Assembly: GCA_048884785.1 (NCBI GenBank)
Contig: JBHLQM010000003.1
Location: 66,887-130,886 of the forward strand
DNA from: Candidatus Thorarchaeota archaeon
GTDB taxonomy: Archaea; Asgardarchaeota; Thorarchaeia; Thorarchaeales; Thorarchaeaceae
Length of the DNA: 64,000 bases
Reading direction: 5' to 3'
A model generated the notes under the pieces. That model was not told where the DNA came from. It was given only the letters and a program-made list of their open reading frames with translations, and made no database searches. Position numbers and translations under genes: made by a program. Below, one piece after another: positions 50,122 to 59,012 of the stretch (position 1 is its first letter; each line of letters begins with the position of its first letter).

Positions 50122-50200
50122 TCAGCTCATCGTAGGATAGGTTATCCTACGAAATGATTTGGATTATAACTCTTACTAATAGGATAATTGTATCCAGTAA

Positions 50201-50456
50201 GAAGGTGCTTCCAGGAATAGAGGTATTTGTGAATCGACTGGACACAAGAACTCTGCAAGGGGACCTTAGACCCAAAATGGGTACTATTGAACGAACGAAT
50301 GCAGATTGCGCTAATGACGCAAATCGCAATCGCAGTCTTTCAAACATGGGAAGTGTCCAGTCGATTTTTCACTGATGAATCGAAGTGATTCAACCATAAT
50401 CTTGCGATTATTCCCCGTTCATCAGTCCCCTGACGCAATCTGATACTGGAATCTTC
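50201..50456. ncRNA. Candidate structured RNA (unassigned family)
   Basis: 14-bp, 9-bp, 9-bp and 7-bp perfect complementarities plus an end-closing stem within 260 nt of intergenic DNA. Confidence 0.5.
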
Positions 50457-50546
50457 CCTATATTTAGTTTTGCTGATTATTCACCGAAGCATCTAAAACT
50501 GACTAATAGGAAAACGCATCGTGCAGTAGTCAGGAGATACATCTAT

Positions 50547-51346: not shown

Positions 51347-52486
51347 ATGCCTGTCGCAATGCTGTTAATCGACTGGGATTCGAAGATTGGTGCTGTTCTC
51401 AAAGCAAAAGTTCCAGGGGACTTTGCTGATTACTATCGTGAGGATCTGAATACTGAAATTATGCGTATCTTTACTTCACATGCTATGGGTGATGCGACTG
51501 CGGGTTTCTCGTCGTTGAGCGTTCGCATCGGAGGCGAGGAATACAACGTTGCCTCATACTATACTGGAATCGTCAGGGAAGAAGAGCAGTATTGCATATC
51601 GCTCTTGCTAACCCCGTCAGAAGATGCAAAGACATACGAGGCAGCGATTACTTCAGTAGTGTCTCCAATTACCACTGCAGTCGTTTCAATGACTGATGCT
51701 GAACTGCAAGCTGAATTAGATAATACCTACAGACGAATTATACGCTTGGCGGGCATGACCGATGAGTCGCGGCTGGCCCGACTCTTTGCTGATGAAGTAT
51801 ACCGGGCTGTCTTTCCAAAGCTTTGGAAGGGAGGTATTACGAAAGAAGACCTTGAAGAATGGCTGAAGATGGTTACGGGTCTGCCCAGTGTAAGCGTTGA
51901 TTCAATTGTTGCGCCATTTGAGGAGCTTGGTATTGTCAAAACCGAGTGGGTTGATGAGATCGGAAGAACCTGCGTCTTCATGATCAAGGATATGGAGGTA
52001 TTTAGGGCCCCACCTCTGGTTTCCATGGAATCAGCATCCTCTGTCCTTGATCCAGAGCTTGCTGCTGAGTACAAAAGCGAGGTTTTGGAATTTCTTACCG
52101 AATGGCAGAAGACTCCAGAGGATACTGTTGCCATCGCAGAAATACTTGCTGATCCTGATGCGTACGATACACTCAGCGTACTGCGACGTCAACCAACCAA
52201 TATCTCTGAACTTGAAGCCACACTAGGAATTCCCCCCAAAGAGCTCAAACAAGCGATACAATTGTTGAAGAAATATAGGGTGGTTGCCGAGAAGAGAAGA
52301 AAGGGCGCCTCGGGCGAGTATGACAAGTGGCTATTCCTACTGAATGATATTCGTGTTAGGCTGTTCTTCCCAGAATACTTCCTGAACACACTTGTGACAG
52401 ATTTAGAAAAAACTCCTGATGACTCGCGCCTGATGGAAATGGTTCATCAACATCTGCGTCTGCTAAGGGATAACTTTCCAAGATAG
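51347..52486 (+). CDS. Longin/uDENN-like domain + tandem winged-helix protein
   Basis: LLIDWDSKIGAVLKAKVP N-terminal hairpin; beta-rich longin-size domain; two WH-like segments. Confidence 0.7.
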   Translation: MPVAMLLIDWDSKIGAVLKAKVPGDFADYYREDLNTEIMRIFTSHAMGDATAGFSSLSVRIGGEEYNVASYYTGIVREEEQYCISLLLTPSEDAKTYEAAITSVVSPITTAVVSMTDAELQAELDNTYRRIIRLAGMTDESRLARLFADEVYRAVFPKLWKGGITKEDLEEWLKMVTGLPSVSVDSIVAPFEELGIVKTEWVDEIGRTCVFMIKDMEVFRAPPLVSMESASSVLDPELAAEYKSEVLEFLTEWQKTPEDTVAIAEILADPDAYDTLSVLRRQPTNISELEATLGIPPKELKQAIQLLKKYRVVAEKRRKGASGEYDKWLFLLNDIRVRLFFPEYFLNTLVTDLEKTPDDSRLMEMVHQHLRLLRDNFPR

Positions 52487-52586: not shown

Positions 52587-53150
52587 ATGAATACGAGAAC
52601 TAGGTTTCTATTTCTTGGATGTGTCATTTTTATTCTACTTGGATTACTACTTGTGGCACTTCCCCGAGAACGGTTGCTCTCTAATGAGGAATACACACCT
52701 CTACAGGCATATCCCACATACTACTATACGAGTTTCACAGTGGAGAATGCCGATTCAAACGCAGTGATTCGTATTAATCTCGACGTAGAGCGCGGCGGGA
52801 ATTTCTCTCAATATTCAACCATGTGGATTCTCTATCAGCTCACACAATTTCAGTTTGAGGAAAGCTTCAACATAACTGAAGTTTACAACATAATGCACAG
52901 TGGAGACTGGAGCGAAAACTGGACAGTCCACTATTTCTGGTTAGGCGGGATTCTCGGCGACTATATACTGCCCTCTGGAGAGCCTATTCCTCCTAGTGCC
53001 TATGTCTTTGTATTTTGGATTGAGCCCGAAGACCCAATAATGGGTTGGTCTGCCACCCTCACAATATCTCTGCAGACAAGTATACTCACATCGTCTCCTT
53101 TGATACCCACATCCTCTCCTTTGAAATGGCTCTTCAGGTCAGGTCTTTGA
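52587..53150 (+). CDS. Hypothetical protein with N-terminal TM anchor
   Basis: TM then aromatic beta-rich domain. Confidence 0.65.
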   Translation: MNTRTRFLFLGCVIFILLGLLLVALPRERLLSNEEYTPLQAYPTYYYTSFTVENADSNAVIRINLDVERGGNFSQYSTMWILYQLTQFQFEESFNITEVYNIMHSGDWSENWTVHYFWLGGILGDYILPSGEPIPPSAYVFVFWIEPEDPIMGWSATLTISLQTSILTSSPLIPTSSPLKWLFRSGL

Positions 53151-53212: not shown

Positions 53213-53574
53213 GCAGAAGGTGATACAAGTGAGAATATAACACTCCCTTTTACCGCTTGACGTATTATGGGATGTCCTTTCGTATTTTGGAACACTAGGA
53301 AGGTTCATATGTGCAAGTTTCACCCTGCAGAATGTATCACTCAGGTGATACACCTTCGAAGCCAACAGTGTTGAGCCTCGGATCCCCCGTCATAGGAACT
53401 CGCATTCGCAACACACGGTTACGGTCCCTAATTGAGTTTCTAACGCATTGGTCCCTTCTGAGCTGTAAAAGCTCGGAACTTGCGCATAACTGATTTCTTC
53501 CGGGCGCTCAGTGCTGAAGGCATCCACGGATGCGGGACTTCGGTCCCGTTTCCAATCGAAGTCCACTCTTCTGT
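53213..53574 (+). ncRNA. Candidate ~360-nt structured RNA (unassigned family)
   Basis: End-closing stem, C(UUCG)G hairpin, several 7-9 bp stems with G-U pairs on +, TATA-like box about 28 nt upstream. Confidence 0.55.
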
Positions 53575-53692: not shown

Positions 53693-55675
53693 GTGATCCA
53701 CAATACATTCCTCATTCGAGCTTCGACCAACGAGATTCTAGCAAGCACACAATACTGGCCTGTTGAAGTCGACAAAGCAGCTCTGAATGAATTCATTGCA
53801 ACTCGAGAAGAACTTCGTAAAGAGGATTCAACACTGGCAAACTTTCCATTGATTATTGGAGACGACAAATTTCAGGGTCGGGACTTGGCTACAGATGTGG
53901 TTCTTATTTTTGTGACTGATAAGGGGGAGGACGAATCTGCAATTGGAGATCGACTAGATTCTGCAGTATCCTCTTTAAGAAAGCGACTTGCAAAGAAAAG
54001 CCTACCAGAAGTATTGGATACTTTCGGGTCTATCATCGAGCCTTCCATCATTACTCGTTTGAAGATTGCCCTGGTTGGAGAAGGTGGTGTCGGAAAAACT
54101 ACAACCCTTCACCTCCTCATGGGGGACACACCCCCACTTCAATACGTACCAACAATCGCACTTAACCTTGAAACGGTTGAGAACATCCGTTTTGGAAACT
54201 ATTCACTTGTGCTTTGGGATTTTGCTGGCCAGGAACGGTTCAGAAATCTCTGGAAATTCTACTTCCATGGAGCAGACGTCATCTTCCTAGTATGTGATTC
54301 ATCCCTGCGGAACGTCATTATTAGCAAAGATATTTACAAACTCATTAAGCGCGATGCACCTAAGGTGCCTGTATTTGCTCTTGCGAATAAACAAGATAAG
54401 CCCAATGCGATGAGATCTGAGGTTGTACAGAAGATATTGGGCATTCCCACATACCCCATGGTAGCAATCGACAAAAGTCGTCGAGATGAGATGCTGCGGA
54501 TACTAATGACCGCTGCTGCACAGTTTGTTGGTGTCGTTCTTCCTGACTTACCAGCATCTGAACTTCTGCGATTTACTGATGAAGCAACAGCAGGTGCAAT
54601 AGAGACTGAGCAGCTAAGCTCAATGAAGGAGATTGAAGAAGAAGAACAAGAAGCTGATGTTGAGGAAGTTTTCGTCGATGAGGAGGGTCATATTCTAACT
54701 GCAGAAGAGATGGAAGGAGAATTTGACTACGAAATTGTTGAAGAAGTCATTGAAGTCGATGAAGAGGCAAATGAAATTGAAGCGGATGAATTAGAGGTGG
54801 CCTCGTCAGAGGAGATGCTCGATGCTCCGGTCGAAATGACTGATGAAGTTTCAGAGGCTGCAATTCCTGAATCCGAAGAAGAACCCACTATGCCAAAAGC
54901 TATGCTTGAACAAGAGATAGCTACTGAAGCCACAAAAGATGAGGCTGAGATGCCTGTTGAGCCCGAAGACACGAGGATTTCGGACTCTGAACCAATCACT
55001 GAATTTGCACCTCCTACCGAAGAGGATATAGCTGATATTGAAGTTGATTTGACTGCTGAGGAGGAACCCACTTCCAAGCTGGAGGAGCCAGCCGAAACCT
55101 CCACTGAACATTGGGTTGAGGATATTGAAGAAGAAGTACATTCTGATGTTGATGAAGACATCACAGTACAAGAATCACCAACTCCTGAGCCCAGCCTTGA
55201 AACATCTCCAGAGGCTTCAAAATTAACTGAGGCATGGGAGCTTGCTACAGTGTCAACTGATGATAGAGATGAATCAGCTGTTTCTATTGAAATGACAGAG
55301 GATATGTCGGAAGAAGCAATAGGAGAACATCCTGTCGAATCCGATGATTCGCGCAGAATGGCCAAGGATTTAATCTCAGAAGCGCTTGATGCAGATGATA
55401 TTATCGCGGCTGAAATTGAGAGAGTTTCGGAAGATGAATTGCATATAGCTCTTGAGGCGTTTTCAAGTGATGAAACAGTTTCAAAAGATGAAGAAGAGAA
55501 CGAAGTTTCAACCGAACAGATTGCCCAGGAGGCTTTGAAAGAACTTGAAGACATCTTGGGTCCTGTGGACGAGCAAACGTCTTTGGATGAAAAAGCAGAC
55601 ACAGATGATGTAGAAGAGGACCTCGATGCCCTAGACACATTGTTTGCGATGATGTTTGGGGATGATGACAAGTAA
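53693..55675 (+). CDS. Longin-like domain + Arf-like GTPase + long acidic disordered tail
   Basis: GEGGVGKT, YVPT, WDFAGQERFRNLW, NKQD; ~120-aa N-domain; ~360-aa Glu/Asp-rich tail. Confidence 0.88.
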   Translation: MIHNTFLIRASTNEILASTQYWPVEVDKAALNEFIATREELRKEDSTLANFPLIIGDDKFQGRDLATDVVLIFVTDKGEDESAIGDRLDSAVSSLRKRLAKKSLPEVLDTFGSIIEPSIITRLKIALVGEGGVGKTTTLHLLMGDTPPLQYVPTIALNLETVENIRFGNYSLVLWDFAGQERFRNLWKFYFHGADVIFLVCDSSLRNVIISKDIYKLIKRDAPKVPVFALANKQDKPNAMRSEVVQKILGIPTYPMVAIDKSRRDEMLRILMTAAAQFVGVVLPDLPASELLRFTDEATAGAIETEQLSSMKEIEEEEQEADVEEVFVDEEGHILTAEEMEGEFDYEIVEEVIEVDEEANEIEADELEVASSEEMLDAPVEMTDEVSEAAIPESEEEPTMPKAMLEQEIATEATKDEAEMPVEPEDTRISDSEPITEFAPPTEEDIADIEVDLTAEEEPTSKLEEPAETSTEHWVEDIEEEVHSDVDEDITVQESPTPEPSLETSPEASKLTEAWELATVSTDDRDESAVSIEMTEDMSEEAIGEHPVESDDSRRMAKDLISEALDADDIIAAEIERVSEDELHIALEAFSSDETVSKDEEENEVSTEQIAQEALKELEDILGPVDEQTSLDEKADTDDVEEDLDALDTLFAMMFGDDDK

Positions 55676-56645: not shown

Positions 56646-57596
56646 TTGGAGCGAGTTCCTGAGAAGGTGGAATCGAGCCGGTCTCAAGTAATTCTTCTCC
56701 TTCTACTTTCTGTTTCCATGGTATCATCTGCTAGCATTCTGATAAGGTTCAGTCAGTCTGACCCATTGGTAATCGTGTTTTGGAGAACTCTCTATGGAGC
56801 CATTGTCATGGCTTCTCTTGGTGTGGTTCGAAAGGATGGACATGCGCTTAAGGGTCCAATAATGAAGAGGAACTGGCCATGGATTATTGCTGTTGGTGTG
56901 GTCCTTGCCTTTCATTTCTCAACTTGGTTCAGTTCTTTGTTCATGACAACAGTAGCTGCCAGTGTCGTGCTAGTAAATACATCACCGATTTTCACTGCAA
57001 TTCTATCAACTGTGTTTCTTGGAGAAGCACTACGACGGCGCTCGTGGCTGGGAGTGTTGGTTGCGGTTTCCGGAGCTATCGTTTTGGCATGGAGCGATTT
57101 TGAATCCGCGGGAACAGGAGCTGTCATGGGTGACATGTTGGCTTTGATAAGCGGATTTCTTCTGGCAGTCTATTTCATCGGAGGAAGGCGATATGCTAAA
57201 GGTCTCCCCATTTCTATCTATACCTCTGTTGTTTACCTAACGGCTGCGTTGGTGACATTGGCTCAGTGTTTGATTTTGGGAATTGATGTCATTGTTCTTG
57301 AACCTACAGAGATACTCATATTCATCGCCCTAGCCATATTTCCAACCGCCTTGGGACATTCTGTAAACAATTACCTTCTTACCCTTGTTCCTGCCTATGT
57401 TGTTTCATCCGCGGTTCTTGGAGAGCCAATAGGAGCTACGATTCTTGCTGTGATATTTCTTGGTGAGATTCCCAGCCCGTTCACTCTTATTGGGTTTGCA
57501 GTCATTTTAATTGGAATCTCTCTTGTTTTGGCAGATATTGCCGCCGCGCAACGTAAACGAGATACATTAACCCTTAATGACACCGAGGGGTCGTAG
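56646..57596 (+). CDS. DMT/EamA transporter
   Basis: 10 TM in two EamA halves; EPIGA. Confidence 0.9.
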   Translation: MERVPEKVESSRSQVILLLLLSVSMVSSASILIRFSQSDPLVIVFWRTLYGAIVMASLGVVRKDGHALKGPIMKRNWPWIIAVGVVLAFHFSTWFSSLFMTTVAASVVLVNTSPIFTAILSTVFLGEALRRRSWLGVLVAVSGAIVLAWSDFESAGTGAVMGDMLALISGFLLAVYFIGGRRYAKGLPISIYTSVVYLTAALVTLAQCLILGIDVIVLEPTEILIFIALAIFPTALGHSVNNYLLTLVPAYVVSSAVLGEPIGATILAVIFLGEIPSPFTLIGFAVILIGISLVLADIAAAQRKRDTLTLNDTEGS

Positions 57597-59012
57597 TCGC
57601 ACGGCTTTTGTGGCAATGCCGAGTTCATCCGATACGCGTACGACCTCATCAACATCCTTGTATGCTCCGGGGGCTTCCTCTGCAATTACAAGCCCTGAAG
57701 TAGCCTTAACCAGAATTCCCTCTCCTGCAAGAGCGGACTGCACTTCCTTTCCAAAGTAAACCTTCTTTGCCTTAGATCTGCTCATGAAACGTCCTGCTCC
57801 ATGCGCTGTGGAGCCAAATGAGAGGCTCATTGATTTTTGATTGCCTATCAAGATGTATGATGCGGTTCCCATCGTACCCGGGATAATAACTGGCTGGCCG
57901 ACGTTTTTGTATTCAGCCGGTGTTTCAGGGTGCCCAGCAGGAAATGCTCTTGTAGCTCCCTTCCGGTGAACAACAACCTTTCTTCTTTTGCCTTCAATAT
58001 CATGCTCTTCGACTTTTCCCATGTTGTGGGCAACATCGTAAATTAGATGCATATCCAAATCCTCTGGAGAGCCACCTATAACTTTGGAAAATGCCTCCCT
58101 GGTCCAATGCATCATTGATTGTCTGTTCGCAAATGCGTAATTCGCCGCAGCACTCATCGCCCCAAGATATGCCTGACCTTCTGGAGATGTTGTAGGGGCA
58201 CTACACAATTCTCTATCGGGGAGATCGAGATTGTATTTTCTCATTGCACTTGTCATGATCTTGATATAATCCCCACAGACTTGATGTCCGAGCCCACGAG
58301 ACCCGCTGTGAATCATGACCATTACCTGTCCTTCTCTTGTTATGCCCATTGCTTTTGCAGCTTCATTATCGTAGATTTGATCCACTATCTGTATCTCTAG
58401 GAAATGATTTCCTGAGCCCAGCGTTCCAACCTGCGAGAAGCCTCTTTTCTTTGCCTCTGTAGAAACCTTGCTTGGATCTGCAAGTTCGATTCGGCCATTT
58501 GCCTCTTGATGGTCTAGGTCTTCCTCCCATCCATAGCCATTTTCAACTGCCCACTTTGCTCCTCCTTCCAAGACCTCATCTACACCACGACTGCCTGAGA
58601 AACTAATTTTGCCTTGCTTTCCTACACCAGTTGGAACAGTATCCCAGAGCTGGTTGATTAGATCCTTCATCTTATCCTTGACGTCGGTATAATCGAGATT
58701 AGTGCGAACGGCGCGGACACCACAGTTGATATCATATCCTACGCCTCCAGGAGAAATCACACCAGATTCATAGTCAGTTGCAGCCACGCCTCCAATTGGA
58801 AATCCATAACCCTGATGTCCGTCTGGTAGAACAATGCTGTGAGTATATATCCCCGGAAGACTTGCAGTATTAGCGGCCTGCTCGAATGTTTTGTCTTGTC
58901 GCATCTTTTCTACAAGATTCTCGGATGCGTAGATTCTTGCAGGGACTTTCATCCAAGGGTGAGTCCCTTTTGGAATTTCAAAAATATTGTCAGCAATCTT
59001 GCGAATCTGCAT
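57567..59012 (-). CDS. rtcB: RNA-splicing ligase RtcB
   Basis: PDGHQGYGFPIG, DINCG, GSGNHF, HSGSRG, HRKGATRA, STAHGAGR. Confidence 0.96.
   Translation of the reverse strand: MQIRKIADNIFEIPKGTHPWMKVPARIYASENLVEKMRQDKTFEQAANTASLPGIYTHSIVLPDGHQGYGFPIGGVAATDYESGVISPGGVGYDINCGVRAVRTNLDYTDVKDKMKDLINQLWDTVPTGVGKQGKISFSGSRGVDEVLEGGAKWAVENGYGWEEDLDHQEANGRIELADPSKVSTEAKKRGFSQVGTLGSGNHFLEIQIVDQIYDNEAAKAMGITREGQVMVMIHSGSRGLGHQVCGDYIKIMTSAMRKYNLDLPDRELCSAPTTSPEGQAYLGAMSAAANYAFANRQSMMHWTREAFSKVIGGSPEDLDMHLIYDVAHNMGKVEEHDIEGKRRKVVVHRKGATRAFPAGHPETPAEYKNVGQPVIIPGTMGTASYILIGNQKSMSLSFGSTAHGAGRFMSRSKAKKVYFGKEVQSALAGEGILVKATSGLVIAEEAPGAYKDVDEVVRVSDELGIATKAVRLRPLGVIKG

Follow-up and report, generated by a model that had tools for sequence, protein, structure and literature searches.

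A candidate stand-alone structured RNA gene of Thorarchaeia with a bulge-helix-bulge motif at the base of its long stem

Results

Genomic context of RNA1

The element studied here, which we call RNA1, lies on contig C3 of a 3.6-Mb MAG, within a 64-kb stretch of DNA that was analyzed as a whole (the window; all coordinates are positions within it). It occupies a gap of 426 nt between plus-strand tmk and a minus-strand operon with genes for DUF4430, a 251-aa protein, an ECF S-component, and a DUF4443 winged-helix protein. We take this operon to serve B12 uptake on the basis of the Pfam matches to DUF4430 and the ECF S-component together with general knowledge, and searches of the PDB did not confirm the B12 assignment. 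RNA1 is very probably a stand-alone, previously uncatalogued structured ncRNA gene of Thorarchaeia (Asgard archaea), and as predicted from the sequence it points away from tmk and does not depend on the downstream operon (Table 1).

Table 1. Features of RNA1 and its surroundings in the window.
Feature	Position	Strand	Remarks
Operon promoter (TATA 50164-69) and palindromic putative operator (50133-49)	50133..50176	-	Not part of RNA1
Predicted RNA1 precursor, ~220 nt	50215..50437	-	Ends estimated from TATA spacing and conservation limits; start about 50436 +/-3, 3' end approximate
3' arm of inner stem (50245-33), BHB central helix (50232-29), and second 3-nt bulge (50228-26)	50226..50245	-	Predicted cut between 50227 and 50226
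Predicted excised circle, 140 nt	50227..50366	-	Estimated from BHB geometry; 107-171 nt in homologs
Near-invariant 19-nt core	50247..50265	-	First 12 nt recur in RNA2 of several genera; insertion site in homolog L249
Variable hairpin	50270..50282	-	Absent in genus g7
Conserved inner domain	50287..50352	-	Pyrimidine tract, invariant CUGCGA (50335-30), irregular hairpin arm, UUCG repeats (50301-50287) at its end
5' arm of 13-bp inner stem	50353..50365	-	Two-sided changes at 8 of 12 pairs (25 copies)
BHB strand 1	50366..50372	-	Central helix 50372-69, 3-nt bulge 50368-66; predicted cut between 50367 and 50366
Leader hairpin	50377..50391	-	Conserved in own genus, 100% of cells paired
Leader G-tract, crossing pair with C-tract 50258-64	50425..50431	-	Pairing possible in 22 of 22 homologs tested; compensatory extension in homolog L012
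BRE/TATA-like promoter of RNA1	50459..50471	-	AT-rich box at near-constant distance to RNA 5' end, spacer sequence variable (25 homologs)
RNA2, second structured RNA	about 53299..53560	+	No Rfam match; own TATA-like box; 3 kb from RNA1
RtcB RNA ligase gene	57567..59012	-	Candidate ligase, 7 kb from RNA1; linkage may be incidental

A preliminary description of this locus had proposed an unassigned structured RNA, which holds up in that the fold is conserved and covarying (see below) and that Rfam contains no match to RNA1 either at the gathering threshold or at E<=10. When the unpermuted sequence was scanned, the Rfam models of RNase P RNA, SRP RNA, and 5S rRNA did not match RNA1 either, and the canonical genes lie elsewhere in the genome. 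Searches with blastn against phages and plasmids came back empty, and none of the RNA1 motif matches in viral contigs and bacterial genomes extended to the full model. Our literature searches found no paper describing RNA1 and no description of any new ncRNA family for this lineage close to the origins of eukaryotes.

Distribution of RNA1

RNA1 is single-copy in its own genome, and every carrier has one copy at one syntenic site beside tmk. Within one Thorarchaeia family, a covariance model located it in 26 of 86 genomes, representing 6 of 16 genera. The gap between tmk and the DUF4430 gene measures 419-584 nt with RNA1 versus 132-297 nt without it, so that promoter and RNA1 appear to be present or absent as one cassette, and the two genes mostly are still neighbors where RNA1 is missing. 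With models R1 and R2, RNA1 was not found in 124 Asgard genomes outside the family, at a sensitivity limited by the first-look filter, and 10 near-complete genomes of cassette-less genera gave no match (sensitivity again filter-limited, no positive control). A record titled Hermodarchaeota (L085) holds a copy with a core identical to that of genus g3, which probably reflects a labeling difference and not a wider host range.

The set of carriers requires 6 changes on a poorly resolved tree (trees of five neighboring proteins resolve poorly between genera), at least 2 of which are forced by strong branches. Since there is a single insertion site, ancestral presence followed by repeated loss is the simplest reading of this history. 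One copy, in genome G013 (locus L292, 560-2760), has lost its 5' half. On that locus, two ORFs without confident Pfam match stand between RNA1 and the gene of a 379-aa protein (see below), and tmk was not found there. This truncation and the patchy presence of RNA1, which is absent from 10 genera of the family, imply that RNA1 is dispensable as judged from its genomic record.

Strand, promoter, and conserved fold

The preliminary description had listed five inverted repeats, all of which are exact reverse complements, as well as TATA-like boxes for both strands, which are both present. It had offered a stand-alone ncRNA on the plus strand as one of two options; the stand-alone part of this proposal stands, while the strand has to be reversed. 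Read on the minus strand, the one-sided changes in the long stem comprise 13 G-U pairs versus 2 A-C mismatches, and this polarity together with the spaced TATA box places RNA1 on the minus strand. The near-constant distance of that box further suggests a start near 50436. Next to tmk, a 14-nt motif at 50483-50496 (+), 45-70 nt upstream of the gene, is conserved in most genera and probably represents the tmk promoter.

RNA1 is predicted to fold with unusual stability on either strand (z = -3.98 for minus, z = -3.32 for plus; 0 of 200 shuffles as stable). Of the pairings proposed earlier, the 14-bp stem covaries across homologs, and the crossing pair of 50425-31 with 50258-64 can form in every homolog tested. 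Other elements gave way to a revised fold: within the genus, the hairpin with the GCAA loop has 39% of cells paired compared to 94.5% for the revised model, the 9-bp stem of 50371-79 with 50418-26 reaches 71%, the pairing of 50302-10 with 50434-42 reaches 73%, and the end stem has 60% and 38% of cells paired, so that none of the four is kept as such across the genus. With a start near 50436, this end stem and the 50434-42 strand would also come to lie at or outside the 5' end of RNA1. The revised fold has 94.5%, 93.2%, and 95.5% of cells paired, values that were reached by 0 of 500 shuffles and compare to no more than 45% for slid controls, though the shuffle control overstates significance because RNA1 homologs are kin and not independent.

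In genera g3, g9, and g15, a second leader strand forms a 6-9-bp helix just downstream of the G-tract helix, with 100% of cells paired in a computation that set the G-tract helix one base off register. The invariant CUGCGA has two possible partners, either 50253-58 or the UUCG-repeat arm. One homolog, L043, breaks the helix with 50253-58 and keeps the pairing with the repeat arm, but the data barely decide between the two because CUGCGA is nearly invariant. We had also considered reading the UUCG repeats as a telomerase-like template and rejected this idea, as there are no repeat arrays, no RT, and the repeats pair in the irregular arm. Resemblances to U6/U4, to group I/II intron cores, to RNase MRP, and to omega-RNA were likewise set aside as coincidences between short motifs.

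A bulge-helix-bulge at the base of the long stem

The base of the long stem forms a bulge-helix-bulge (BHB; 50372-50366 / 50232-50226), the motif of the archaeal tRNA-splicing endonuclease EndA, which the preliminary description had passed over. Its second strand runs from the inner stem through the 4-bp helix and the 3-nt bulge into the outer pair or pairs. An anchored scan found the 3-nt first bulge, the 4-bp central helix, and the inner helix in 27 of 27 full-length copies, with at least 1 outer pair in 24, at least 2 together with the second bulge in 21, and at least 5 in 11 of them. This geometry is kept while the central helix takes 11 different sequences and its register slips by one base between lineages. 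A scan that did not presuppose the motif, and that mis-anchored several copies, found full 4/4 pairing only at a bulge length of 3 (14 of 26 copies, compared to none at six other lengths). The genomic background frequency of the BHB geometry, taken over 75,539 stems, is 0.5%, or 0.07% if 2 outer pairs are included. The outer helix of genera g3, g9, and g15 has two-sided changes at 6 of 10 pairs. In the own genus it spans 0-4 bp, with 1 bp in this genome amounting to a relaxed motif, so that cleavage would need relaxed recognition.

This genome encodes two EndA paralogs and RtcB. Asgard EndA has been described as an (alpha-beta)2 enzyme with an L1 loop, the type that cleaves relaxed motifs (PMC5829648). 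We therefore expect, with good though incomplete confidence, that the RNA1 precursor is an EndA substrate.

One homolog (L249, ~1667-1812, -) carries a 31-nt insertion of BHB type inside the invariant core, a candidate intron outside tRNA, rRNA, and cbf5. It combines a 9-bp stem and a 4-bp central helix with two 3-nt bulges ending in A, its size matches the tRNA introns of the genome studied here, and the invariant core is exactly regained when the insertion is cut out. The chance of such a helix match is ~1.6% per register, and we regard the insertion as a putative BHB intron that is supporting but not decisive.

RNA1 and the neighboring operon

The preliminary description had envisaged a riboswitch-like leader for corrinoid uptake, and this reading, in which RNA1 would regulate the DUF4430/ECF-S operon as a corrinoid riboswitch or attenuator in its leader, would fit the arrangement in most carriers, where RNA1 immediately precedes the operon on its strand. 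Against it, a TATA box and a palindrome belonging to the operon itself lie after RNA1, and these precede DUF4430 in nearly all loci examined, RNA1-less genera included; 10 genera have the operon without RNA1, and the two are apart in four genomes. In these four (G003, G004, G006, and G014), the operon is found elsewhere together with its TATA box and palindrome. RNA1 is still beside tmk in G003 and G006, followed by a palindrome and DUF4443, as it is also followed in G004, while in G014 it is still beside tmk and followed by a PAS/histidine-kinase gene. No cobalamin riboswitch was found in this genome, and RNA1 has no match to RF00174 and no B12 box, the latter in agreement with what had been noted before. 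A riboswitch function of RNA1 is therefore extremely improbable.

The operon is instead likely controlled by a DNA-binding protein at the putative operator palindrome, possibly DUF4443 itself. DUF4443, too, is preceded in three genomes by a TATA box with the palindrome right after it. The palindrome has three further copies in the genome (G000 C9:68052, C12:44882, and C21:25799), and one of the four lies between convergent genes.

A second structured RNA in the neighborhood

A further structured RNA, RNA2, is single-copy and was found in 22 of 26 family genomes examined, including genera without RNA1. Like RNA1, it has no Rfam match at the gathering threshold or at E<=10. A long-range pseudoknot is possible in RNA2, which also has a U-rich single-stranded tract, and the 12-nt motif of the RNA1 invariant core recurs in the RNA2 of several genera. 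Its closing stem has no conserved BHB, with a perfect one in a single homolog (L231). Profile cross-matches between the two RNAs are weak, with E about 0.006 by nhmmer and 1.1 by CM, and leader-to-RNA2 pairing in trans was no better for own-genome pairs than for cross-genome pairs. Paralogy or a common partner of RNA1 and RNA2 is plausible from these similarities, and we put the chance of a shared partner somewhat short of even.

The surrounding genes include one for a 379-aa protein without Pfam match (51347-52486 and 53693-55675, +, with its neighbor) that shows 83-95% identity across most of the family; its neighbor encodes an Arf/Roc-like GTPase whose acidic tail is long. A 187-aa ORF without Pfam match (52587-53150, +) separates the 379-aa gene from RNA2 and is not at this position in the relatives compared.

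Discussion

The overall explanation that we favor, at a confidence modestly above even, is a stand-alone RNA1 gene whose transcript would be spliced to a circle of ~140 nt, with the leader as a clamp and a partner shared with RNA2. The precursor of ~220 nt would be cut at both bulges by the two-subunit EndA, and ligation by RtcB would yield a covalently closed RNA of ~140 nt as well as a short leader-trailer product. In the precursor, the leader G-tract would pair with the invariant core. The leader would most likely act as a clamp during folding; after splicing it would either remain attached as a second strand or release the core. The weakest step concerns function, where the most likely role would be that of a stable, dispensable RNP component or a decoy presenting the short motif of RNA2, such that the circle may be a stabilized accessory or decoy engaging the same protein or RNA partner as RNA2. 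A bolder proposal, which we consider rather unlikely, is that RNA1 and RNA2 form a pair of related stable RNAs of Thorarchaeia that constitute a new RNP or RNA-RNA system, with RNA1 as a dedicated circular-RNA gene whose spliced leader would be held on the circle by exon-intron pairing to give a two-piece RNA with its own activity.

The main rival to the circle arises from the pairing of the leader with the core: The whole pseudoknotted transcript of ~220 nt, or a nicked two-piece form held together by that pairing, could be the functional RNA, while the BHB would only trim an end, control turnover, or be a protein-binding shape. Every copy has leader strands that pair with the invariant core, the outer helix has just 0-1 bp in 6 of 27 copies, and a similar long stem occurs in RNA2, where no BHB is conserved. 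However, the exact 3-4-3 geometry is kept across all 11 helix sequences and the register shift, and the excised part holds most of the invariant residues. The latter makes the circle the likelier working form of RNA1, by a narrow balance of probability, and leaves the uncut or two-piece form with a minor but appreciable chance. The opposite division would make an ordinary BHB intron of the 140-nt part, with the spliced leader and trailer (~75-90 nt) as the product, such as a hidden tRNA or a small RNA; this appears quite improbable: The geometry is that of tRNA introns, of which many are hidden in Asgard tRNA genes (bioRxiv 10.64898/2026.10.13.758758), but these exons would be the least conserved part of RNA1. 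Testing RNA1 as an intron-containing, split, or permuted tRNA did not reveal a cloverleaf with T-arm and acceptor after splicing, and ARAGORN at lowered threshold made inconsistent calls only, for spliced exons or doubled circles, with no T-arm.

If the circle is the product, it could also be a guide RNA pairing with rRNA or tRNA, since circular intron-borne guides have precedent in the C/D guide of the tRNA-Trp intron (PMC12558985) and RNA1 has single-stranded invariant tracts. Conserved C/D or H/ACA boxes are missing though, as is the target complementarity of 10-21 nt expected of such guides: complementarity to 16S, 23S, RNase P RNA, SRP RNA, and tRNAs is short and not common to homologs, making a guide function very improbable. 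Searches for protein partners were similarly negative: TROVE was found in 0 of 41 genomes (Ro60 as partner of a Y RNA), and the reverse transcriptase RVT_1 in 3 of 41, none in the own genome (retron or RT template). The latter does not co-occur with RNA1, which speaks against an element acting at the level of DNA (a MITE, an IS200/IS605 end, or an omega-RNA remnant), which might otherwise be suspected from the terminal inverted repeat, the patchy presence, and the truncated copy in G013. A MITE dispersed with target duplications had been raised before as an alternative, but each genome has a single copy, always at the same syntenic site, the mismatches are G-U and not A-C on one strand only, and neither phages, plasmids, nor viral contigs hold a homolog. 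We regard a DNA-level element as the least probable of all these readings.

If our interpretation is true, a separately promoted, conserved gene for a circular structured RNA widens the uses of archaeal splicing. To our knowledge, the known BHB substrates are tRNA, rRNA, cbf5 mRNA, and one permuted SRP RNA. The analysis also corrects a tempting wrong call, as a DNA palindrome and not a riboswitch seems to govern the neighboring transporter operon, and it uncovers with RNA2 a family-wide RNA that is absent from Rfam.

Among known systems, RNA1 resembles the cobalamin riboswitch (RF00174) in its place upstream of DUF4430/ECF-S genes, but differs from it in sequence and structure and in not being linked in cis to the operon. 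It shares with pre-rRNA processing stems a long stem with a BHB that would release a circular RNA and join leader to trailer, yet it encloses 107-171 nt of non-rRNA, and 5S rRNA is encoded elsewhere. With RNA2 it has in common the own promoter, a long closing stem followed by a C-tract, the 12-nt motif, and the neighborhood, while RNA2 is family-wide, has no conserved BHB, and possesses an extra 3' domain; homology of the two is not statistically established. Archaeal BHB introns (in tRNA, rRNA, and cbf5, including the circular tRNA-Trp intron with its C/D guide) are similar in splice-site geometry, in the predicted circular product, and in carrying conserved information in the excised part. 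Unlike these, RNA1 has no recognizable host RNA, its own promoter, no C/D boxes, and complex crossing pairings. The circularly permuted SRP RNA of Thermoproteus is described as the product of a stand-alone gene whose short leader and trailer form a BHB (Plagens et al. 2015, as cited in PMC7758197), and the predicted RNA1 precursor is similar in that the splicing machinery would make a circular functional RNA and not a discarded intron. RNA1 differs from it in having no Rfam match and a separate SRP RNA on contig C19, in the pairing of the leader with the core of the circle, and in being dispensable in 10 genera. The processing route is a known one, and the RNA family is new.
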